Source: a virus
Reading direction: 5' to 3' (one strand)
Length of the DNA: 16,100 bases
UHGV virus genome: UHGV-0340572
Numbering within the stretch: the stretch's first letter is position 1; every line of letters starts with the position of its first letter. This document shows, piece by piece, positions 247 through 16,100 of the stretch. The notes below the pieces were generated by a model. It saw only the letters and a program-made list of their open reading frames with translations. It had not been told where the DNA came from and made no database searches. Position numbers and translations under genes: made by a program.

Positions 247-735
247 ATGACCACTATTGCATGGGATGGAAAGACCCTGGCATCTGACACCCAGGCATCA
301 TCTGGTGATGTTGTGTGTTCGTATACAGAACAAAAGATTTACACACCGCCAGAATCTGGGTGGGAGGTTTGCGGCAGTAAAGTGGTTGCATTAGGTTGTT
401 CTGGTGATTGCGGCGCTGAGATGGAATTGCAGGAACTGCTTAAGAATAACCTGACGTATGCATCAGAATTTCTCCCGACATTCTCTTTCACAGCGCTTGC
501 TATCATTGGTGCTGGTCGTGCTTACATCATCTCAAAAGAGAAAGGCGAAACGCGGGCGAGTATTTCGCTACAGGTTGAACCTTACGCCATTGGTAGTGGT
601 GGGCTGATTGCTCGCACTGCCATGCACTGTGGCAAAAATGCGAGAGAAGCGGTACAAGTCGCAATTGATCTTGACTGCTATTCCGGCGGCAGTGTTGATT
701 CGTTCCCCGCTGGGAAGCAAACAGAAGGGAAATAA
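247..735 (+). CDS. proteasome beta / HslV-like N-terminal-nucleophile (Ntn) hydrolase family protein, 162 aa
   Basis: Translation begins [20 protein letters not shown], matching the Thr1...D17 N-terminal motif of proteasome beta/HslV subunits; a Lys in QKIY sits at the equivalent of HslV Lys33; C-terminal AIGSGG matches the conserved GSGG loop (HslV has AIGSGG). RBS GGAG at 237-240, 6 nt before the ATG. Comparison is from memory of E. coli HslV and proteasome beta sequences. Confidence 0.65.
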
Positions 736-4885: not shown

Positions 4886-5797
4886 ATGGACCAAACCACC
4901 GACATTCAGGCTTCTGAAGAATTAACCCTGCCCGGCAATCATGCAGCGGCATCTGCTGATGGCTTAGTTGTCGATAATGCCAACGACAACGCAGGTCAGG
5001 AAGAAGGCTTCGAGATTGTCCTGAAAGACGATGAGAAACCAAAACAAGACCCGGCAACTAATGCTGAATTTGCCCGTCGCCGCATCGAACGCAAACGCCA
5101 GCGTGAGCTTGAGCAACAGATGGAAGCGGTTAAGCGGGGAGAGTTGCCGGAGCACCTGCGGGTGAACCCTGAGTTACCAAAACAACCAGACCCTAACGAT
5201 TATCTTTCCGAAGACGCACTGGCTAAGTACGACTATGACCAGAGCCGCGCACTGGCTGCCTTCCAGCAGGCAAATAGTGAATGGCAGATCAAGGCTATGG
5301 ACGCACGAAGCCAGGCTGTCGCCGAGCAGGGTCGCAAAACTCAGGAGTTCACCCAGCAATCAGCGCAATATGTCGAGGCAGCCCGTAAGCACTACGACGC
5401 AGCGGAAAAGCTCAATATCCCTGACTATCAGGAGAAAGAGGATGCATTCATGCAACTGGTGCCGCCAGCAGTCGGTGCCGACATCATGCGCCTCTTCCCG
5501 GAGAAATCCGCTGCTCTCATGTATCACCTTGGTGCTAATCCTGAGAAAACACGCCAGTTGCTGGCGATGGACGGGCAATCCGCGCTGATTGAACTCACTC
5601 GACTGTCAGAACGTTTAACTCTCAAGCCTCGAGCCAAGCCTGTTTCAGAAGCCCCGTTACCTGATGAACCCATTCAGGGACACGCTGTTGCTGCAAATAT
5701 CTCTGCGATTGAAAAGCAGATGGAAGCGGCAGCAAACAAAGGGGATGTAGAGACGTACCGCAAGCTCAAGGCGCAACTGAATAAAGGAATTCGATAA
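4886..5797 (+). CDS. 8: scaffolding protein (P22 gp8-like), 303 aa
   Basis: 303 aa, the same length as P22 gp8; highly charged, helical composition; positioned between portal and coat; its stop overlaps the coat start (TAATG). Confidence 0.88.
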
Positions 5798-7092
5798 TGG
5801 CATTAAATGAAGGTCAACTGGTCACGTATGCTCTGGATGAAATCATCGAAACCGTCCAGAACCTGACGCCAATGGCGTCCAAAGTGACAAAATACACCCC
5901 TCCGGCAGAATCCATGCAGCGTTCAAGCAACACCGTGTGGATGCCTGTTGAGCAGGAAGCGCCAACCCAGACTGGCTGGGATTTAACTGGCAAAGCAACC
6001 GGGATTCTGGAGCTCTCCGTGAAATGCAACATGGGCGATCCGGATAACGATTTCTTCGAGCTTCGTGCAGATGACCTGCGTGATGAGCGTTCTTACCGTC
6101 GCCGCATCCAGGCATCCGCCAAAAAACTGGCGAATAACATTGAGTCAGCGATTGCCAAACAGGCAACTGAAATGGGCTCGCTTGTTGTTCACGATACCCG
6201 CGCAATTGGTCCATCTACTGGCCTGTCTGGCTGGGATTTTGTGTCTGATGCAGAGCGCCTGATGTTCTCCCGTGAGCTAAACCGCGACATGGGCATCAGT
6301 TACTTCCTGAACCCTGACGATTACCGCAAAGCAGGCCGCAATCTTGTAGATGGTGACATCTTCGGGCGCGTTCCTGAAGAAGCGTATCGCAACGGTACTA
6401 TTCAGCGTCAGATTGCTGGCTTTGATGAAATTCTTCGCTCACCGAAACTTCCGGCAGTTACCAAGTCAACCGCTACTGGTGTAACTGTTTCTGGTGCGCA
6501 GAAGTTTAAGCCCCAGGCATACACTCTTGATACCGATGGTAACAAAGAGAACGTTGACAACCGTGTTGCAACGGTGACCGTATCCTCCACCACCGGATTT
6601 AAGCGCGGCGACAAAATCAGCTTCACTGGTGTGAAATTCCTGTCTCAGATGGCGAAGAACGTGCTAACTGATGATGCGACTTTCTCAATCACCCGTGTGA
6701 TCGATAGTACTCACATCGAAATCACGCCGAAGCCGATTGCACTTGATGACGCGTCACTGACAAAAGAAGAGAAGGCTTACGCTAACGTAAACACCTCTCT
6801 TGCTGATACCACTCCGGTAAACGTTCTGAACGTGGCAACAACCACCGCTAACGTGTTCTGGGCTGATGACTCAATCCGCCTGCTGTCTCAGCCGATCCCG
6901 GTAACCCATGAACTGTTTGCTGGTATGAAAACGTCTTCCTTCAGCATTCCTGGCATTGGTGTTAACGGCATCTTCGCAACGCAGGGCGATATCAACACTC
7001 TGTCTGGTAAGTGCCGTATTGCTGTGTGGTATTCAGCATGTGCTGTACGACCAGAGGCAATTGGTGTTGGTCTGCCTAACCAGACTGCGTGA
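5797..7092 (+). CDS. 5: major coat protein (P22 gp5-like), 431 aa
   Basis: N-terminus [25 protein letters not shown] and size match P22 coat protein (about 430 aa); RBS AAAGGA upstream; followed by a strong terminator. Confidence 0.93.
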
Positions 7093-7136: not shown

Positions 7137-7373
7137 ATGACACACATGATATTTCGTCATGGCGACATGAAGAAATGGAAAGGCGTTGGATACGACTTTG
7201 AAATCGTGAAAGCCGAAGAGCTTCAGGAATATCTGGATGCTGGCTGGTTTGCACATCCTGATGATCTTCTGAAGGATGTTGCAGAGCCAGAGCCAGAGCC
7301 AGAAGAAAAACAGCGTAAAAAGCCTGGTCGAAAACCTAAGGCGGCAGCAGATGAACCTGACAACGAAGGGTGA
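7137..7373 (+). CDS. small hypothetical protein (78 aa) between coat and gp4, with an acidic EPEPEPE repeat and a basic KKPGRKPK tail
   Basis: ATG at 7137 preceded by GGAG (7127-7130) with a 6-nt spacer, placed just after the terminator. The track ORF 7089-7373 extends upstream across the terminator and is unlikely to be the true start. The 3' end overlaps the gp4 start by 23 nt. A small ORF at this position is, as far as I recall, present in P22 too, but I cannot confirm identity. Confidence 0.5.
7282..7305 (+). repeat. hexanucleotide tandem repeat, (CAGAGC)x3 plus a degenerate fourth unit
   Basis: CAGAGCCAGAGCCAGAGCCAGAAG read directly; encodes the EPEPEPE stretch of the small ORF. Confidence 0.8.
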
Positions 7374-7851
7374 TTTAGTTCTTGCGGCATTACGTAAGCT
7401 CGGTGTGGCATCAAATGCCACGTTAACCGATGTCGAACCTCAGTCCATGGAAGACGGCGTCAACGACCTTGAAATGATGATGGCTGAATGGCTTGGCGGT
7501 GATGCGTCACCTGGTATCAACGTTGGCTACATTTTTGCTGATGCAGATGTCGCTCCGGATCCGGGCGATGAGCACGGTTTATCAAATAACGCTATCAATG
7601 CCGTCATTTTCAACCTTGCCTGCCGAATTGCTCCAGATTATGCGCTGGAAGCGTCTGCAAAACTTATAACCACTGCCAGATACGGGAAAGAGCGACTCGT
7701 CAAACTGTCTGCAATGGACAGAGCAAAAGCCGCAAAATGTAAGTCCGGTTATCCAAATCGTATGCCTGTTGGCAGTGGAAACCAGTTGGCGAAGTGGAAC
7801 GGTTGGAATTACTTCCACCGAAAGGAACCTTGCGATAACGGGAGCGAATAA
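7351..7851 (+). CDS. 4: portal-closure / head-completion protein (P22 gp4-like), 166 aa
   Basis: The track ORF starts at 7276, but the ATG at 7351 ([36 protein letters not shown]...) gives 166 aa, matching P22 gp4 length and the N-terminal region I recall. The 7276 ATG has GAAGG directly abutting it with no spacer. Confidence 0.85.
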
Positions 7852-9269
7852 TGCCGATTCAGCAACTTCCGCTTATGAAAGGTGTCGGCAAAGACTTTCG
7901 AAACGCCGACTATATCGACTATCTGCCAGTGAATATGTTGGCTACACCAAAAGAAATCCTGAACAGCAGCGGATATCTTCGCTCATTCCCGGGCATTGCC
8001 AAACGTTCTGATGTAAACGGCGTATCGCGCGGAGTCGAGTACAACATGGCGCAGAATGCTGTTTATCGCGTGTGTGGTGGCAAGTTGTATAAGGGCGAAA
8101 GTGAAGTCGGCGATGTTGCCGGAAGTGGTCGTGTATCATTGGCTCATGGTCGGACATCACAGGCTGTAGGCGTTAATGGTCAACTGGTCGAGTATCGCTA
8201 TGATGGCACGGTTAAAACCGTCTCAAACTGGCCTACAGACAGCGGATTCACACAGTACGAGTTAGGCTCAGTCCGCGACATTACGCGCTTACGTGGCCGT
8301 TATGCGTGGTCAAAAGACGGCACTGATTCATGGTTTATCACTGACCTTGAAGACGAATCACATCCTGACCGATACAGCGCACAATATCGCGCAGAATCGC
8401 AGCCTGACGGCATCATCGGCATCGGAACATGGCGAGACTTCATCGTCTGTTTTGGTTCATCTACGATTGAGTATTTTTCCCTGACTGGTGCAACCACCGT
8501 TGGTGCCGCTTTGTATGTCGCCCAGCCATCGTTGATGGTGCAAAAAGGAATCGCCGGAACCTACTGCAAAACGCAGTTTTCTGATTCCTATGCGTTCATC
8601 AGCAATCCGGCAACAGGTGCTCCGTCTGTATACATCATCGGCTCCGGTCAGGTATCACCAATCGCCAGCGCGAGCATTGAGAAAATACTACGCTCCTACA
8701 CTGCTGATGAACTGGCTGATGGCGTGATGGAATCGTTGCGGTTTGATGCTCATGAGTTGCTGATTATTCACCTGCCGCGCCATGTTCTTGTTTACGACGC
8801 ATCTTCAAGCGCCAATGGTCCGCAATGGTGTGTGTTGAAAACAGGCCTGTATGACGATGTGTACCGCGCTATCGACTTCATTTACGAAGGCAATCAGATA
8901 ACGTGCGGCGATAAGCTGGAGTCCGTGACCGGGAAATTGCAATTCGACATCAGCAGCCAGTACGACAAGCAACAGGAACACCTGCTGTTTACTCCACTGT
9001 TCAAAGCGGATAACGCCAGAGTTTTCGACCTTGAGGTTGAATCGTCAACTGGCGTTGCGCAGTATGCTGACCGCCTTTTTCTCTCTGCAACCACTGACGG
9101 CATCAATTACGGGCGTGAGCAGATGATTGAGCAGAATGAACCGTTCGTTTACGACAAACGCGTTTTGTGGAAGCGAGTAGGGCGCATCAGGAAAAATGTC
9201 GGCTTCAAATTGCGCGTTATCACGAAGTCACCTGTCACTCTGTCTGGCTGCCAGATAAGGATTGAGTAA
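7851..9269 (+). CDS. 10: tail hub protein (P22 gp10-like), 472 aa
   Basis: 472 aa, the same as P22 gp10; start overlaps the gp4 stop (TAATG); conserved gene order 4-10-26. Confidence 0.9.
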
Positions 9270-10117
9270 TGGCGGATTCGAATCTCAATGTGCCGGTAAT
9301 CATCCAGGCTACGCGGCTCGACACATCAGTCCTTCCACGCAATATCTTCTCGCAGTCATATCTGCTGTACGTTATCGCACAGGGTACTGATGTTGGTAAC
9401 GTGGCGAACAAGGCCAACGAGGCCGGACAGGGCGCTTATGATGCACAGGTCAGAAACGATGAGCAGGATGTGATTCTCGCTGACCATGAGCAGCGAATTT
9501 CTGCTGCGGAAGCAACGCTTGTTAATCATGAGGAGCGAATCAGCCAGGCAGAATCAACTCTTCAGGAACATGAAACACGAATAGCTCAGAATGAAAGCGA
9601 TATTGCGTCGCTTGATACCAGAGTTCAGTCGCTGGAATCGCAGGTTTCAGACCATGAAACGCGCATCGATGCTCTGAAGTATGCCACTACTCGCAAGAAG
9701 TCAGAGGTTGTTTACTCTGGCGTATCTGTAACCATCCCGACAGCGCCGACCAACCTTGTTAGCCTACTGAAAACGCTCACGCCGTCATCCGGCACGTTGG
9801 CACCATTCTTCGACACCGTTAACAACAAGATGGTTGTGTTCAACGAGAACAAAACCTTGTTCTTCAAGCTGTCGATCGTCGGGACGTGGCCCAGCGGAAC
9901 CGCAAACAGGTCAATGCAGCTAACATTTTCCGGTTCTGTTCCTGACACACTGGTAAGCAGTCGCAACTCGGCGACAACAACCGACAACATCCTGTTAGCT
10001 ACGTTCTTCAGCGTGGATAAAGACGGCTTTCTTGCCACAAATGGCAGTACGTTAACCATTCAGTCAAATGGGGCGGCGTTTACTGCCACAACCATCAAAA
10101 TCATTGCGGAGCAGTGA
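9269..10117 (+). CDS. 26: tail needle protein (gp26-like) with C-terminal knob extension, 282 aa
   Basis: N-terminus [43 protein letters not shown] closely resembles the P22 gp26 N-terminus as I recall it, followed by a coiled-coil segment with repeated HExRI motifs. At 282 aa it is about 50 residues longer than P22 gp26 (233 aa), with a beta-rich C-terminal domain, as in Sf6-type needles. Confidence 0.85.
9482..9691 (+). repeat. 42-nt (14-codon) periodic repeat in the needle coiled-coil region
   Basis: Units beginning at 9482 (DHEQRIS), 9524 (NHEERIS), 9566 (EHETRIA) and 9650 (DHETRID) are spaced 42, 42 and 84 nt apart; imperfect at the nucleotide level. Confidence 0.55.
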
Positions 10118-10572
10118 TGATTCAGTTCAAACCAACGCGAAACATCGACCTGATCGAAGCGGTAGGAAATCACCCTGACATTATCGCCGGGAGCAACAAC
10201 GGTGATGGATACGACTACAAACCTGATTGCCGTTACTTTGAGGTGAACGTGCACGGGCAGTTCGGCGGCATTGTTTACTATCAGGAGATTCAGCCGCTGA
10301 CATTCGATTGCCACGCCATGTACCTGCCAGAGATTCGCGGCTTCAGCAAGGAAATCGGGCTGGCGTTCTGGCGATACATTCTGACTAACACCACCGTTCA
10401 GTGCGTCACATCGTTCGCCGCACGCAAATTCCGCCACGGGCAGATTTACTGCGCAATGATTGGCCTTAAGCGTGTAGGAACCATCAAGAAATACTTTAAA
10501 GGCGTGGATGACGTGACTTTTTACAGCGCCACACGCGAAGAACTAATCGACTTCCTGAATCACGGGAGATAG
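10117..10572 (+). CDS. 14: P22 gp14-like virion assembly/ejection-associated protein, 151 aa
   Basis: Occupies the position of gene 14 between the needle gene and gene 7. ATG at 10117 overlaps the needle stop (TGATG); the track's start at 10114 is a GTG one codon upstream. Assignment is by synteny and size; I cannot recall the gp14 sequence confidently. Confidence 0.65.
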   Translation: MIQFKPTRNIDLIEAVGNHPDIIAGSNNGDGYDYKPDCRYFEVNVHGQFGGIVYYQEIQPLTFDCHAMYLPEIRGFSKEIGLAFWRYILTNTTVQCVTSFAARKFRHGQIYCAMIGLKRVGTIKKYFKGVDDVTFYSATREELIDFLNHGR

Positions 10573-10574
10573 CC

Positions 10575-11267
10575 ATGTTATATGCATTTAAGCTGGGCAG
10601 AAAACTGCGCGGCGAGGAACCTTATTGCCCTGAAAAGGGTGGAAAAGGTGGCAGTTCTGATAAAAGCGCAAAGTATGCCGCAGAAGCTCAGAAGTATGCA
10701 GCAGACCTGCAAAATCAGCAGTGGCAGACGATCATGAAAAACCTTGCTCCGTTCACGCCTCTTGCGGAGCAGTATGTTAACCAGTTGCAGAATCTTTCCA
10801 GTTTAGAAGGTCAGGGGCAGGCACTTAATCAGTATTACAACTCTCAGCAGTATAAAGACCTTGCAGGTCAGGCGCGTTACCAGAGTCTTGCTGCTGCGGA
10901 GGCGACGGGTGGACTTGGTTCGACAGCCACAAGCAATCAACTGGCTACGATCGCGCCGACACTCGGTCAGTCTTGGTTATCAAACCAGATGAGCAATTAC
11001 AACAATCTGGCAAACGTTGGGCTTGGTGCGCTGCAAGGTCAGGCAAACGCCGGGCAGACGTACGCCAACAACATGAGCAGCATTGCACAGCAAAGCGCAG
11101 CACTTGCCGCTGCTAATGCCAATAAACCATCAAGTCTTCAGACTGCAATTAGCGGTGGCACGTCTGGTGCGATTGCCGGTGCAGGTCTTGCCAGCCTTTT
11201 GGGAACATCAACGCCTTGGGGCGCTGGCATTGGTGCTGGTATCGGATTGCTTGGCTCGTTGTTTTAA
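10575..11267 (+). CDS. 7: ejection (E) protein gp7-like, 230 aa
   Basis: 230 aa vs 229 in P22 gp7; RBS GGGAG 6 nt upstream; Gln/Ala-rich with a Gly-rich hydrophobic C-terminus (AGAGLASLLG...GAGIGAGIGLLGSLF); conserved position. Confidence 0.85.
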   Translation: MLYAFKLGRKLRGEEPYCPEKGGKGGSSDKSAKYAAEAQKYAADLQNQQWQTIMKNLAPFTPLAEQYVNQLQNLSSLEGQGQALNQYYNSQQYKDLAGQARYQSLAAAEATGGLGSTATSNQLATIAPTLGQSWLSNQMSNYNNLANVGLGALQGQANAGQTYANNMSSIAQQSAALAAANANKPSSLQTAISGGTSGAIAGAGLASLLGTSTPWGAGIGAGIGLLGSLF

Positions 11268-11276
11268 GGGGTAATC

Positions 11277-12665
11277 ATGGCTACTTGGCAAGGAACAAAC
11301 GGCGGATTGTTGGCTGGTATCGGCGGCGTCAACTCAAACGCTCCGAGCGTAAATGACATCGGCAATACGCTTCAGCTTATCAGGCAGAACAATGATATTG
11401 AGCGTTCAGGCGCTAACAATGTTGGGCTGACTGCTTTGCAAGGCCTTTCAGGTATTGCGGGGGTGTTTCAGCAGGAAAAGCAGGCTCAGCGGCAGAAAGA
11501 ATTTCAGCAGGCATACGCTAATGCTTATGCGTCTGGTGATCGCGGTGCTTTGCGTCAGTTGGCTACTCAATATCCAGAACAGATTGAATCCGTTCGTAAA
11601 GGCATGGGATTCATTGATGAAGACCAGCGTAATTCTATCGGCACCTTAGCGGCTGGCGCACGCCTTGCGTCATCGTCTCCAGAAGCAATGCAATCATGGC
11701 TGCAAAACAACGCCAAGGAACTGACTCGCGTCGGTGTTGACCCTAACAGCGTTGCTCAGATGTATCAGCAGAACCCTTCAGGATTTGGTGAGTTTGTTGA
11801 TCACCTTGGAATGGCTGCTCTTGGTCCAATTGATTACTTCAATGTTCAGGACAAGATGGCTGGTCGTGAGATTGATCGCGGGAAACTTGCAGAGACAATC
11901 CGCAGCAATCAGGCTGGCGAGGCGCTAACAGCACGAGGCCAGAACATCACGATGCGCGGTCAGGACTTATCTGCTTCTACTGCGCGACGAGGTCAGGATT
12001 TGGCAATGCAGCGAGCGTCAACAAGAGGAATCGCTGGGAATGATGAGCGTACAGTTCAGTTATCAGATGGCAGAACTGTAACGGTAGGCGGGAAGCTTCA
12101 TGGCGCTGGGGCTAATGCGTTCTACGAAGGCATCGACAACGATGGGAATATGGTTCGCGTCCCTGCCAGTTCAATCGCTGCGCCTGCAACATCGTCTGCA
12201 TCAGCACAAAACTATGCCATGAAGAAGGATATCGACGCGATCGCAAATGCAGACGCTTCTGCTCTCGATTTCATGACAGGAATGACAGGTGGTGCAGGTA
12301 ATCCAGCAATTGGTGCTGATGTTCGCAGCCGATTAACGGGAAAAGAGCAGCGCCAGTTATATAACTCAGCACAACGTATTCAGGGCAGAATGCAGAATCA
12401 GGGTGTGGCGGCAGCAAGGGACATGGGTGCCAGTGGTATTAACACCGTTGCAGAAGCGAAGATGTATTTTCAGGGGATGCCGCAGGTTGACTATTCAAGC
12501 CCGGAGGCTATGCAGCAGTCGATTCGTGAGATTCAGGAATACACCAACAATTACAACCAACAATATAACGTTAATGTTGGTAAATCTCAGCGGCAGCAAT
12601 CTCAACCTGCACAGGTATCACAGCCAGCAGCCAGCAGTAACTTTTCTTCACTATGGGGTGATTAA
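11277..12665 (+). CDS. 20: ejection protein gp20-like, 462 aa
   Basis: Position after gene 7 and size near P22 gp20 (471 aa); RBS AAGGGG 5 nt upstream; stop overlaps the next start (TAATG). Confidence 0.82.
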
Positions 12666-14662
12666 TGGCTAAAGCATGGAAAGATGTTATCGCCTCTCCA
12701 CAGTATCAGGCGTTAGCACCAGAACAAAAAGCGCAGGCTCAGGAGCAATACTTCAATGAAGTCGTTGCCCCGCAAGCCGGAGAAAATGCAGAGCGGGCTA
12801 AGCAAGCTTTCTATGCTGCCTATCCATTGCCATCTGTGCAGCCAGTGGGGACACAGCAACCAGTAGCACAGCAACAACCACAGCAAAGTGGATTCATGTC
12901 TGATCTTGGCGAAGCAGTAAAAGAGACTGGTCGCGGAATGGTGCAGGCTGGCGTGAACGTGGCAAACATACCTGCATCAGTTGCCGATGCTGTAACAAGC
13001 GCGGCGGCTTGGGCTGGCGGTAAACTCGGCATTGGCGATGGTACATATCAACCAGCACCACGAGTAACAACGCAGGGATTAGAGCAGGACTTTGGCCTTC
13101 AGCAAGGTGCGCTGACTCCACAAACGACAGAGGGAAAGGTATTTGCTGAAGCATTGCCTTACCTCACTCCTGCTGGCGTTGAGAGAGCGGCGGTACAGGC
13201 ACCAACACTTGCTGGTCGAATTGCTCAGGGGGCAACTCGCCTTCTAGCAGAAAACGCAGTTGGATCACTTGCTGCAAACAGTGCGAAAGATGATGCGGAA
13301 GCACTCGCCACCGATTTAGGCGTTGGTGTGCTGGCTGGCGGTGCTATTAACGCTGCCGGACGTGGATTAGGTGCTGCTTATCGTGGTGTTCGTGGTTCGA
13401 TAGCACCAGAAGCTCAACAGGCTATCAGGTTTGCAGAGCGTGAAGGAGTTCCTCTGCACACCACAGACCTGTTACAGCCTACTTCCCGCGTCGGGAAAAT
13501 GGCGCAGACTACAGCAGAAAATATCCCCCTGGCTGGCACAAGCGGAATGAGAGCAACGCAACAGGAAGCGAGAAGCCAGTTGGTGCAGAGATTTGCCGAT
13601 AAATTCGGTGAGTATGATCCAGCGGTTGTTATTGACAGCCTTAAAGCGAAAACATCAGGAATTCGTCGTGCCGCCGGTAATCGACTGGAGCAGGTTCAGA
13701 ATGCTATGGCTGGAGTAAACATTCAGCCTGCGCGAGCAATTCAGCAGATTGATACAGAAATATCTAATCTGCAGAAGCTTGGTAAGGTTGCTGATAACGA
13801 GACTATTTCAAAACTTCAGTCATATCGTGATGAGCTTGTTCGCAATGCTGGTCCTGATGGTCCGGTAAATCTGGATTTGAAGCAATTAAGCGATCTGCGC
13901 AGCCAGTTCAGAATGGACGTGAAGGGTGAACGACCAGTGTTACCAAACCGTTCCGATGCTGCCATTCAGCGCGTTTACAAGGCGATGACAGACGATATCA
14001 ATGGTGCCATTGGTCAGAATCTTGGCAACGATACTCTCCGTAAATATCAGCAGGCCAATGCCGTATACGCTGACGAAGCGGCGAAACTAAAGAATACCAG
14101 GCTGAAGAATGTTCTCATGAAAGGCGACCTGACGCCGGAAGTTGTCAACAACATGCTATTCAGCAAGAACAAATCGGAAATTAAGACGCTGTATAACTCA
14201 GTTGGTCGCGTTGGAAGAGCGCAAATGCGCAATGGCATCATTGGAAAGGCGATAGAGAAATCAGGTGGTTCACCTGACCAGTTCCTTCGACAGCTTAACA
14301 TCCTGCAAAACCAGACTGGCATCACATTTAAAGGTCAGGAAGCCGCTTATCTGAAAGGATTGAAAAACTACCTTCAGTCCACTCAGCAGGCAGCAAAAGC
14401 GGCAGTAACAACACCAACAGGGCAGCAAACCATCCCGTTCATTATCGGATATGGGACGGCAATGAACCCGGCGACAACTGGCGCAGCAGTAAGCTACGGA
14501 CTTCTTACTCGCGCCTATGAGAGCGAGCCATTCAGAAATGCAATGCTCCGAATGGCAAACACACCACGCGGATCAACAGCGTTTGAGAAAGTCATGCAGC
14601 AGGCGCAAAAGGCCATTAACGCCCTGACTCAGGGTGCCAAGTCTGATGCGTTGTCAGAATAG
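12665..14662 (+). CDS. 16: ejection protein gp16-like, 665 aa
   Basis: Last gene of the ejection-protein trio by synteny; Ala/Gly/Gln-rich; longer than the 609 aa I recall for P22 gp16. Confidence 0.82.
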   Translation: MAKAWKDVIASPQYQALAPEQKAQAQEQYFNEVVAPQAGENAERAKQAFYAAYPLPSVQPVGTQQPVAQQQPQQSGFMSDLGEAVKETGRGMVQAGVNVANIPASVADAVTSAAAWAGGKLGIGDGTYQPAPRVTTQGLEQDFGLQQGALTPQTTEGKVFAEALPYLTPAGVERAAVQAPTLAGRIAQGATRLLAENAVGSLAANSAKDDAEALATDLGVGVLAGGAINAAGRGLGAAYRGVRGSIAPEAQQAIRFAEREGVPLHTTDLLQPTSRVGKMAQTTAENIPLAGTSGMRATQQEARSQLVQRFADKFGEYDPAVVIDSLKAKTSGIRRAAGNRLEQVQNAMAGVNIQPARAIQQIDTEISNLQKLGKVADNETISKLQSYRDELVRNAGPDGPVNLDLKQLSDLRSQFRMDVKGERPVLPNRSDAAIQRVYKAMTDDINGAIGQNLGNDTLRKYQQANAVYADEAAKLKNTRLKNVLMKGDLTPEVVNNMLFSKNKSEIKTLYNSVGRVGRAQMRNGIIGKAIEKSGGSPDQFLRQLNILQNQTGITFKGQEAAYLKGLKNYLQSTQQAAKAAVTTPTGQQTIPFIIGYGTAMNPATTGAAVSYGLLTRAYESEPFRNAMLRMANTPRGSTAFEKVMQQAQKAINALTQGAKSDALSE

Positions 14663-14751: not shown

Positions 14752-15012
14752 TTAGTTGCTGTCTTTTTTATATAGCTCCTTGAGCGTATCAAAGACAATT
14801 TTCTTAACCATATCAGATTGTTGTTCTGCCATACGCTCTGCATCGTCAATGTAAACTGATGCAGAGCTTTGTTTATCCAATGATTCCTCAATCGCTGCAA
14901 TTATCTCTGAGTTCAGCGACCTGTTATTCATCTTCGCACGCTGCTTAATTTTCGCGTGAAGTTCATGCGGAAGTCTCAAGTGAAACTGCGCCTCGTCGTA
15001 TTTGCTGTACAT
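14752..15012 (-). CDS. mnt: Mnt-like ribbon-helix-helix repressor, 86 aa
   Basis: The track ORF (14752-15510, -) is over-extended across the tailspike start. From the internal ATG at 15012 the protein MYSKYDEAQFHLRLPHELHAKIKQRAKMNNRSLNSEIIAAIEESL...DDAERMAEQQSDMVKKIVFDTLKELYKK matches P22 Mnt as I recall it (HFNFRMPMEVREKLKFRAEANGRSMNSELLQIVQDAL...NDAERLADEQSELVKKMVFDTLKDLYKK). GAGG lies 8 nt upstream on the - strand. Confidence 0.8.
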   Translation of the reverse strand: MYSKYDEAQFHLRLPHELHAKIKQRAKMNNRSLNSEIIAAIEESLDKQSSASVYIDDAERMAEQQSDMVKKIVFDTLKELYKKDSN

Positions 15013-15147
15013 CCTTGATGCCTCACCAGTTGGGTGGAATGGCATCGTAAAACCTACTGTACAAATCAACAATCGTACCGTTTCGGTATGCAACAAACAC
15101 CAACCGTAGCCACGCTGCGGCGATTCCTTGTATCTGGAGCAAATTAA
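15013..15147. promoter_or_regulatory. divergent intergenic region between mnt and tailspike; probable promoter/operator region
   Basis: 135-bp non-coding gap between divergently oriented genes. Contains the inverted repeat TACCG-TTT-CGGTA (15076-15088), the palindromic hexamer TGTACA (15058-15063) and the imperfect 17-bp palindrome CCGTAGCCACGCTGCGG (15103-15119). I could not pick out convincing -35/-10 hexamers by eye. Confidence 0.4.
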
Positions 15148-16100
15148 ATGACAGACATTACAGCCAATGTGATTGTATCGATGCCTTCGCAACTCTTCAC
15201 TATGGCGCGTTCTTTTAAAGCTGTAGCCAATGGCAAAATTTATATCGGTAAAATTGACACTGACCCTGTAAATCCAGAAAACCAGATTCAGGTTTATGTG
15301 GAGAACGAAGACGGCTCTCACGTTCCTGTTTCGCAACCAATCATCATTAATGCTGCTGGATATCCGGTATATAACGGACAGATTGCCAAATTCGTAACTG
15401 AGCAAGGCCATTCTATGGCTGTATATGATGCGTATGGCACGCAGCAGTTCTATTTCCCTAATGTGCTGAAGTACGACCCTGATCAATTTGAGATTAGGCT
15501 TTCTAATCAAGACGGCGCTGGTCTTGTTGGGATTATGCCATATGGCACGGTACAGGATGCCATCAAATGGGTTGTCCCCGAGGTATTCCCCGGAAGTAAT
15601 GCGTCAGAAAAATTACAGGCAGCTGTAAATTATGCGGTTGCAAACAAAACGAGAGTTGTAGCATCAGGTGTGTACGATGTAACGGCCCCCGTCACCATCC
15701 CAGGAGACATCATTATCGATGCTTCTACTGGAGAATTTACCTTCAATGGCATTGATTATATTTTCCATCCGCTTGGCGCAAAATCAGTAGAGATTATCGG
15801 TGGTAAGTTCACCGCAAATGCATACCACACCCAGCGTCCTCAGGTAATTTTCAATGATTACCCTGATGGGCTGGCGAATTTGCCAACGCGAGTGGTGATA
15901 AAAGATATGCAATGCTTTAACTGCGGTGTTGGCTACATCATGGTTAACTGTCAGGACCCAACCAGCGTACATGTCTCAGTTGATAATAACTACTGCAAGA
16001 CTGATGACAACACAGATCAGTATATCTCTGATGCAGGAATGTCAGGTGAACAGGGTGAGGTATATCCATATCTGATGATTCTTGGCAACACGACTGCATC
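15148..16100 (+). CDS. 9: tailspike protein, 5' portion (truncated at window end); P22-type N-terminal head-binding domain with a different receptor-binding domain
   Basis: ATG at 15148 with GGAG 9 nt upstream. Translation MTDITANVIVSMPSQLFTMARSFKAVANGKIYIGKIDTDPVNPENQIQVY...NVLKYDPDQF matches the conserved P22-family tailspike head-binding domain. After about residue 113 the sequence (IRLSNQDGAGLVGIMPYGTVQDAIKWV...) no longer resembles P22 gp9 as I recall it. Open to the window end, so absent from the ORF track. Confidence 0.85.
   Translation, partial: MTDITANVIVSMPSQLFTMARSFKAVANGKIYIGKIDTDPVNPENQIQVYVENEDGSHVPVSQPIIINAAGYPVYNGQIAKFVTEQGHSMAVYDAYGTQQFYFPNVLKYDPDQFEIRLSNQDGAGLVGIMPYGTVQDAIKWVVPEVFPGSNASEKLQAAVNYAVANKTRVVASGVYDVTAPVTIPGDIIIDASTGEFTFNGIDYIFHPLGAKSVEIIGGKFTANAYHTQRPQVIFNDYPDGLANLPTRVVIKDMQCFNCGVGYIMVNCQDPTSVHVSVDNNYCKTDDNTDQYISDAGMSGEQGEVYPYLMILGNTTA

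Follow-up and report, generated by a model that had tools for sequence, protein, structure and literature searches.

An Sf6-type knobbed tail needle gene in a P22-like phage sequence, its module junctions and natural in-register variants of its shaft length

We analyzed a 16,100-nucleotide (nt) stretch of viral DNA (UHGV virus genome UHGV-0340572; hereafter the window) and the tail needle gene that it carries. P22-like phages possess two types of needle with entirely different C-terminal tips (PMC3741392, Leavitt et al. 2013), and the window gene almost certainly encodes an ordinary needle of the Sf6 (knobbed) type, carried by a temperate phage or prophage of Escherichia coli that belongs to the P22-like group (Lederbergvirus). 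This needle class is already known, structurally characterized and very common. A sequence-only reading of the same DNA had described the needle as a mosaic and a module swap relative to P22. Its composition, with an N-terminus of the P22 type, a coiled coil and a knob of the Sf6 type, was confirmed, but the needle is not newly formed; a unique new mosaic was rejected, as the gene is an allele of Sf6 gene 9 over its full length. The gene and its domains are listed below.

9269..10117, plus strand: tail needle gene, ortholog of Sf6 gene 9 and P22 gene 26; an intact open reading frame (ORF) of 282 amino acids plus stop.
9269..9477, plus strand: N-terminal virion-binding (plug) domain, residues 1 to ~70, conserved in both needle types.
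9482..9691, plus strand: coiled-coil shaft of five units of 42 nt (14 residues), together ten heptads, in which HE×RI and AE×TL types alternate.
9692..10114, plus strand: C-terminal knob domain, residues ~142-282, with a fold like that of tumor necrosis factor (TNF) in solved homologs (PMC3741392).

The needle gene is 95.8% identical at the DNA level to Sf6 gene 9, 96.6% to its counterpart in Kapi1 and 98.2% to that in Louie, and the protein shares 277 of its 282 residues with Sf6 gp9 and 280 with the Louie needle. An identical gene (100%) is present in two complete E. coli chromosomes, BUCT2930 and X14-3. Homologs covering at least 80% of the gene were found in 463 of 5,426 complete E. coli genomes, and the name given to E. 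coli homologs by the NCBI pipeline is "tail needle knob protein". The profile phrog_1030 ('tail needle knob') matches residues 1-282 (E = 2.5e-135), while phrog_1219 ('tail needle protein') matches residues 1-145 only. The window as a whole is 95.8% identical to coliphage IME10 over 82% of its length. Prophages in E. coli chromosomes share 96-98% identity with it over 93-97% of that length, and among the complete E. coli genomes of the collection none reaches 100% over the entire window, the best having 97-98%. These identities place the origin of the window in a temperate phage or prophage of E. coli of the P22-like group (Lederbergvirus).

In the survey published in 2013, the Sf6-type knob was present in 69 of 164 genomes, the knobs differed from each other by at most 4.9%, and their occurrence in P22-like phages was restricted to Escherichia and Shigella hosts (PMC3741392). 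It was also proposed that the knob entered the P22-like group recently, and matching knob domains were noted in other, unrelated phages (PMC3741392). Outside these hosts, a needle gene 96.6% identical to that of the window lies at 13781-14627 of the 33.7-kb record LC768498.2 (Klebsiella phage phiKp_30, with Klebsiella pneumoniae as the stated host). Against the Escherichia- and Shigella-only survey, either the host range of the knob is wider or the host label is doubtful. In addition, many O157:H7 genomes (with matches in O157:H7 and O55:H7 chromosomes) contain a truncated needle copy (query 321-849, 96.6% identity) that adjoins a DUF2824 gene and fits the small P22-like remnant described previously (PMC3741392).

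Residues 1-70 of the plug domain are identical to Sf6 at all 70 positions, to HK620 at 66 and to P22 at 57. The close similarity of the first ~60 residues to P22 gp26, noticed earlier from the sequence, was confirmed by 49 identities in 60 residues, followed by 12 of 15 at residues 61-75. Residues 1-137 align with the P22 gp26 structures 2POH and 3C9I (E ~1e-43 to 1e-44), and residues 3-64 match the 62-residue chain 8EAP_B, 'Tail needle protein gp26' (E = 1.7e-27). The shaft has ~11 heptads in total, which is the same length as in Sf6, in a family that ranges from 11 to 16 heptads. Among the heptad columns of residues 72-141, column 6 is I/L/V, column 2 is H/A/N/L and column 3 is a near-invariant E. 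Heptads H-E-x-R-I and A-E-x-T-L alternate over the first three units (residues 72-113) and H-E-x-R-I is back at residue 128, thus the shaft has a 14-residue super-period. The coiled coil had previously been called P22-like, a description that does not hold for the shaft, only 20 of 62 residues being identical to P22.

The knob matches the Pfam family PF16532 Phage_tail_NK ("Sf6-type phage tail needle knob") with a score of 388 bits against a cut-off of 27, as well as the crystal chains of the Sf6 knob (3RWN, E = 4.9e-90) and the HS1 knob (4K6B, E = 1.5e-89). Over query residues 130-282, 3RWN shows two differences inside the native sequence, E137K and S270A; at positions 141-282, 141 of 142 residues are identical to Sf6. 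In crystals of the Sf6 and HS1 knobs, L-glutamate is contacted by Glu146, Lys200, Ser248 and Asp250 (PMC3741392), all of which are kept at the same positions in the window needle. No meaningful similarity to the C-terminus of P22 gp26 was found past residue ~140 (18 of 87 aligned residues identical and 55 positions gapped, at positions 141-282), and the alignments to P22 gp26 chains end at query residue 137-144, leaving the tip of the P22 (knobless) type unmatched. A single-sequence AlphaFold2 model consists of one long helix at residues 42-141, with a predicted local distance difference test score (pLDDT) of 80-94 for residues 60-130, and of strands from residue 146.

Several expectations of the sequence-only reading were therefore borne out by these comparisons. 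The needle is ~50 residues longer than P22 gp26 (282 vs 233 amino acids, a difference of 49), its C-terminal domain is of the Sf6 knob type and distinct from P22, and the proposed check by alignment and structure prediction revealed neither a C-terminal alignment to P22 nor the lack of a distinct terminal domain, the modeled helix being followed by a strand-rich region. The knob had also been described as added; it is present, but it replaces P22 residues 141-233 rather than being appended to them.

Among the closest known systems, Sf6 gp9 (knob 3RWN; in-situ model, PMC9728967) has the same length of 282 amino acids, the same three domains and glutamate contacts, and the same neighbors, the gp8/gp10 hub upstream and the gp14 homolog downstream. 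It differs from the window needle by five substitutions (window residue, position, Sf6 residue): S92R, E100D, A113S, K137E and A270S. The head genes of the window, unlike the needle, follow the IME10/Dewey/Louie lineage, and homology to Sf6 starts only at position 7846. The needle of the HS1 prophage (knob 4K6B), a 317-residue form found also in Gally and JEP4, has a nearly identical N-terminal domain and is essentially identical over query residues 131-282 (140-141 of 142 residues in Gally and JEP4). However, its shaft contains 16 heptads vs 11 in the window, being 35 residues longer, and is identical at only 48 of 70 residues over the common part (PMC3741392). P22 gp26 (2POH, 3C9I; 233 amino acids) shares the homologous plug domain, a trimeric heptad shaft of the same nominal length, the gene position and, by analogy, probably the same role of a channel plug and expelled needle, whereas its tip residues 141-233 are unrelated to the knob and its shaft is diverged as described above. 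Finally, C-terminal domains matching residues ~140-268 with 37-56% identity (tblastn) were found beyond the P22-like phages, for example in Cba120-like phages of Salmonella and E. coli, in the T4-like Aeromonas phage 44RR2.8t, and in Klebsiella, Vibrio and Dickeya phages. These carriers, which are among the knob matches reported outside the P22-like group (PMC3741392), lack the gp26-type N-terminal plug domain and have another genomic context.

The closest overall relatives of the window, IME10 and Dewey, carry knobless needles of 233 amino acids. We located the boundaries of the exchanged segment using pairwise BLAST, a 100-nt sliding identity scan and nucleotide alignments against a few relatives. 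Identity to IME10 is 86-99% across gp10 and is already down to ~70% from ~9250; over gp10 and the beginning of the needle gene, Dewey is 88-98% identical; and the identity of both Dewey and HK620 collapses at ~9471-9489. All three phages regain 93-100% identity from 10115. The left junction is located at the end of the conserved ...GAYDAQV(R/K)NDEQDV... codons at the 3' end of the plug domain (~9431-9477), at about codon 69-70, and the right junction is as follows.

10114..10121, plus strand: right-hand boundary of the needle cassette, located at the TGATG overlap of stop and start codons, GTGATGAT; the left side follows the needle type and the right side follows the gp14 type.

Louie and Kapi1 show the converse arrangement, sharing the needle with the window and possessing the other gp14/gp7 type from 10119, which argues that the boundary between the needle and gp14 genes is a genuine mosaic joint. 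Relative to the IME10/Dewey backbone, the exchanged block is therefore the shaft plus the knob (~9478-10114) and not the knob alone. The needle consists of three modules that can be exchanged, the shaft-plus-knob segment having been replaced between the ...NDEQDV... codons and the gp14 stop/start overlap.

The shaft is also exchangeable separately from the knob, since HS1-type needles combine the same N-terminus and knob with the diverged shaft mentioned above. E. coli also commonly carries a third shaft allele, which likewise has a length of 70 residues (e.g. cluster P0090). Furthermore, the 303-residue needle P0032 has a first shaft unit of the Sf6/window type followed by a shaft of the HS1 type and is therefore an intragenic recombinant between shaft alleles. 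A hybrid in which codons 69-233 of P22 were replaced by Sf6 codons 69-282 is viable (PMC3741392). The natural left junction (~codon 69-70) coincides with the fusion point of this P22::Sf6 hybrid (codon 69), which fits a needle of three modules whose parts can be swapped without breaking assembly.

A 42-nt periodicity of the shaft, pointed out earlier as a possible substrate for length variation by recombination, was recovered in the region 9482-9691. Nucleotides match at a lag of 42 in 48% of positions vs 28% in codon-shuffled controls (z = 5.9), and amino acids are identical at a lag of 14 in 41% vs 8% (z = 9.3). The periodicity is visible only by autocorrelation and at the protein level: Tandem Repeats Finder detected no array in 9200-10200, the units are identical at 15-26 of 42 nt, exact runs in register do not exceed 8 nt, and in-frame exact repeats of 9 nt or more are absent. 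The window shaft is thus poorly suited to ordinary homologous recombination of one unit with another. Two groups of codons hold the short matches that are used in natural variants.

9485..9498, plus strand: HE×RI codons of unit 1, CATGAGCAGCGAAT; together with the unit-2 copy at 9527-9540 they hold the microhomologies of the natural crossovers that remove or add 14 amino acids.
9566..9582, plus strand: HE×RI codons of unit 3, GAACATGAAACACGAAT; their partner, at a distance of 84 nt, is the unit-5 copy (9650-9666), and they are the site of the natural expansions by 28 and 56 amino acids.

To take a census of natural shaft lengths, we searched a large protein collection and measured the shaft relative to the window in 116 clusters of knobbed needles possessing both anchor motifs. 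The shaft has the window length in 71 clusters and is 21 residues longer in 30; the remaining in-register differences are -14 (2 clusters), +14 (2), +28 (1), +35 (5), +49 (1), +56 (1) and +63 (1). The difference is thus a multiple of 7 residues in 114 of the 116 clusters, and only two singletons (+27 and +34) are out of register. In the Sf6/window allele, the following clusters reveal how units were gained and lost.

P0047, 268 amino acids: units 1 and 2 fused, with the crossover in AGCGAAT.
P0005 and P0006 (Shigella flexneri), 296 amino acids: unit 1 duplicated, with the crossover in CATGAG.
P0002, 310 amino acids: the 84-nt block of units 3+4 duplicated in two exact copies, with the crossover in GACCATGAAAC.
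P0001, 338 amino acids: the 84-nt block of units 3+4 triplicated in three exact copies, with the crossover in CATGAAACGCG.

The expansions of units 3+4 are independent events, as P0001 and P0002 arose on different allele backgrounds. Among HS1-type shafts we found two different deletions of 14 residues (P0032 and P0036, both 303 amino acids) and duplications of 28 residues (P0027, 345 amino acids; P0035, 331 amino acids). Several variants recur in independent assemblies: P0002 is present in three contigs (two assemblies shown), P0005 in three contigs and in the near-identical P0006, and P0047 contains 11 member sequences. The periodic shaft therefore does serve as a substrate for length variation, the crossovers being located at microhomologies of 6-11 nt and not in long homology. 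Separately, small tandem duplications in the N-terminal domain, including extra KAN repeats, were observed in P0004 (298 amino acids), P0008 (288) and P0009 (285); each of these clusters is a singleton, and the duplications may be errors. In 60 E. coli genome records sampled across a spread, full-length needles were of two sizes only, 849 and 954 nt, which taken alone would wrongly suggest the absence of fine-scale length variation, as the large protein search revealed more lengths. The 11- to 16-heptad range of shaft lengths has already been published (PMC3741392), and no description of recent tandem unit events in the needle shaft was found in the searchable literature. The length variants are a minor addition to this picture and are not surprising for a coiled-coil fiber.

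The proposed function combines the present results on identity, domain architecture, junctions and length variants with a trimeric state, plug function, expulsion and kinetic role inferred from the literature. As in its homologs P22 gp26 and Sf6 gp9, the needle would be a homotrimeric fiber of three chains. The ~70 N-terminal residues would fold into a helical hairpin, which would close the channel through the hexameric hub, the product of the gene at 7851..9269, and retain the packaged DNA; the ~11 heptads would make a trimeric coiled-coil shaft reaching beyond the tailspikes; and the 140 C-terminal residues would make a TNF-like trimeric knob. In the Sf6 virion the N-terminal helical hairpin of the needle closes the channel of the hexameric hub as a quasi-sixfold plug (PMC9728967). 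The P22 needle retains packaged DNA and is expelled at infection before the ejection proteins, and the needle tip alters the kinetics of K+ efflux and hence of DNA delivery (PMC3741392). By analogy, the window needle would be expelled at infection ahead of the homologs of gp7, gp20 and gp16, and the shape of its tip would affect the speed of DNA delivery and not the host that is recognized.

A role of the knob as a receptor-binding domain that sets the host range is very improbable for this needle. The TNF-like fold does resemble receptor-binding knobs (the adenovirus fiber knob and PRD1 P5), the knobs of P22-like phages were limited to Escherichia and Shigella in the 2013 survey cited above, and its authors leave a specific role of the knob for Sf6 on Shigella possible (PMC3741392). 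However, P22 chimeras carrying the Sf6 shaft and knob or the HS1 knob still infect Salmonella efficiently, mutations of the glutamate-contact residues have no visible effect, and a needle tipped with foldon is still viable (PMC3741392), so that the implication of the needle tip in host range made by the sequence-only reading was not upheld, and the host-range role is already largely refuted for P22 on Salmonella. Moreover, the tailspike annotations of the knobbed Louie and the knobless Dewey name the same kind of product, suggesting that the needle type is not tied to the tailspike, and a nearly identical gene occurs in the record labeled as Klebsiella phage phiKp_30. It is likewise very improbable that the gene is left over from a decayed prophage and has ceased to produce a functional needle. 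The 5'-truncated remnant of the needle (query 321-849) does occur in many E. coli genomes, O157:H7 in particular, and more than 100 such prophage remnants have been described (PMC3741392). In the window, by contrast, the needle ORF is full-length, its overlaps with gp10 and gp14 are intact and the module from terminase to gp16 is uninterrupted; the gene is also 98% identical to the needle of phage Louie, the record of which describes it as isolated from sewage plant inflow.

With regard to the shaft of this Sf6-type needle, the 42-nt periodicity might be merely a by-product of coiled-coil constraints that takes no part in length change. The low DNA identity between units, the absence of longer in-frame exact repeats and of a Tandem Repeats Finder array, and the two needle sizes in the 60 sampled E. 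coli records favor such an explanation; nevertheless, we consider it improbable. The wider census revealed shafts at -14, +14, +21, +28, +35, +49, +56 and +63 residues, the gains and losses in the Sf6/window allele are exact tandem units with junctions in recurring HE×RI codons, and similar expansions of units 3+4 arose on two allele backgrounds, with comparable -14 and +28 events in HS1-type shafts. As a first step, in-register units of 14 residues would be gained or lost through the 6-11-nt microhomologies at the HE×RI codons, by slippage or relaxed-fidelity recombination; as a later step, identical 84-nt repeats, once duplicated, could expand by ordinary unequal exchange. A further-reaching proposal is that shaft length is a fast-evolving, heptad-quantized trait, for which the HE×RI codons are a slippage and unequal-crossover hotspot, with selection tuning the reach of the needle to the thickness of the envelope and surface polysaccharide. 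P22-like prophage populations would then repeatedly produce needles whose length is changed in either direction by 14, 28 or 56 residues (roughly 20-80 Å). We regard this proposal as speculative and rather unlikely: the variants and their junctions exist, and any adaptive or functional value that they could have is conjectural.

No observation speaks against the assignment to the Sf6-type needles; a few points limit other parts of the interpretation. Some of the less common length variants occur only as singletons and may be artifacts of assembly, and we infer the direction and number of the recombination events behind the cassette swap from a few relatives only. The single-sequence AlphaFold2 monomer model has a mean pLDDT of 59 and is poor for the knob (pLDDT 40-65), so the assignment of the knob fold rests on near-identity to solved structures. 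Finally, the last heptad before the knob, at the shaft-knob junction, contains K137 (codon AAG, 9677-9679; DALKYATT), a position occupied by Glu in the representatives of all 116 motif-bearing homolog clusters and also in Sf6, Louie, Kapi1, Gally and JEP4. The same DNA in E. coli BUCT2930 and X14-3 indicates that K137 is not a sequencing error in the window.

The genomic neighborhood agrees with that of P22, the order of genes being gp4, gp10, needle, gp14, gp7, gp20 and gp16 according to ORFs and PHROG matches.

7276..7851: adaptor, gp4 homolog.
7851..9269, plus strand: tail hub/head-closure protein, homolog of P22 gp10 and Sf6 gp8, matching phrog_578 'head closure Hc3' (E = 1.4e-228) and supported by annotations of relatives.
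10117..10572, plus strand: P22 gp14 homolog (DUF2824), matching phrog_651 and named 'DUF2824 family protein' by the Prokaryotic Genome Annotation Pipeline (PGAP).
10575..14662: ejection proteins, homologs of gp7, gp20 and gp16.

The terminase, portal, scaffold and coat genes lie upstream of the adaptor gene, and the virion module from terminase to gp16 consists entirely of uninterrupted ORFs. The needle gene is located between the hub and gp14 genes, in the same order as in Sf6, and the hub, a protein of 472 amino acids encoded immediately 5' of the needle, would by analogy be its docking partner. The needle ATG overlaps the stop codon of the gp10 homolog (TAATG), and the needle TGA overlaps the start codon of the gp14 homolog (TGATG); such overlaps are typical of translationally coupled late phage genes. 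For the gp14 homolog, the ORF listing gives an upstream in-frame GTG at 10114, while in the annotations of Sf6, Louie and other relatives the gene starts at the counterpart of the ATG at 10117. Two antisense ORFs within the needle gene, 9712..10059 and 9235..9417 (both on the minus strand), have no Pfam match and lie opposite a strongly supported coding frame; they were taken as spurious.

Additional observations concern the flanks of the module and insertions in related phages. Just 5' of the small terminase gene, a 162-residue ORF (247..735, plus strand) matches phrog_1040 'peptidase HslV family' (E = 3e-37). A 252-residue ORF located 3' of the gp16 homolog (14752..15510, minus strand) is probably part of an immI-like region; its 100 C-terminal residues match Arc-like repressor and 'partition protein ATPase' PHROGs, and its 150 N-terminal residues have no PHROG match. 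In Louie and Dewey an HNH endonuclease gene on the minus strand lies between the scaffold and coat genes (5058-5585 of the Louie record; 5058-5579 of the Dewey record), whereas these genes abut directly in the window (5797), which explains the alignment break at ~5784-5798. Some related prophages possess a 181-residue ORF similar to NUMOD4/HNH_3 homing endonucleases between the hub and needle genes (e.g. 963-1508 of the Logan ERR11477502 contig, as well as some E. coli matches); no such insertion between these genes is present in the window. A homing endonuclease at this location could promote gene conversion at the 5' junction of the needle.

In summary, "tail needle knob protein" of the Sf6 type is a secure annotation for the gene; its structure and biology are already documented, and it carries little weight as a discovery. 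The catalog of natural in-register shaft variants is ready material for work on needle length in relation to virion stability and the kinetics of DNA delivery.

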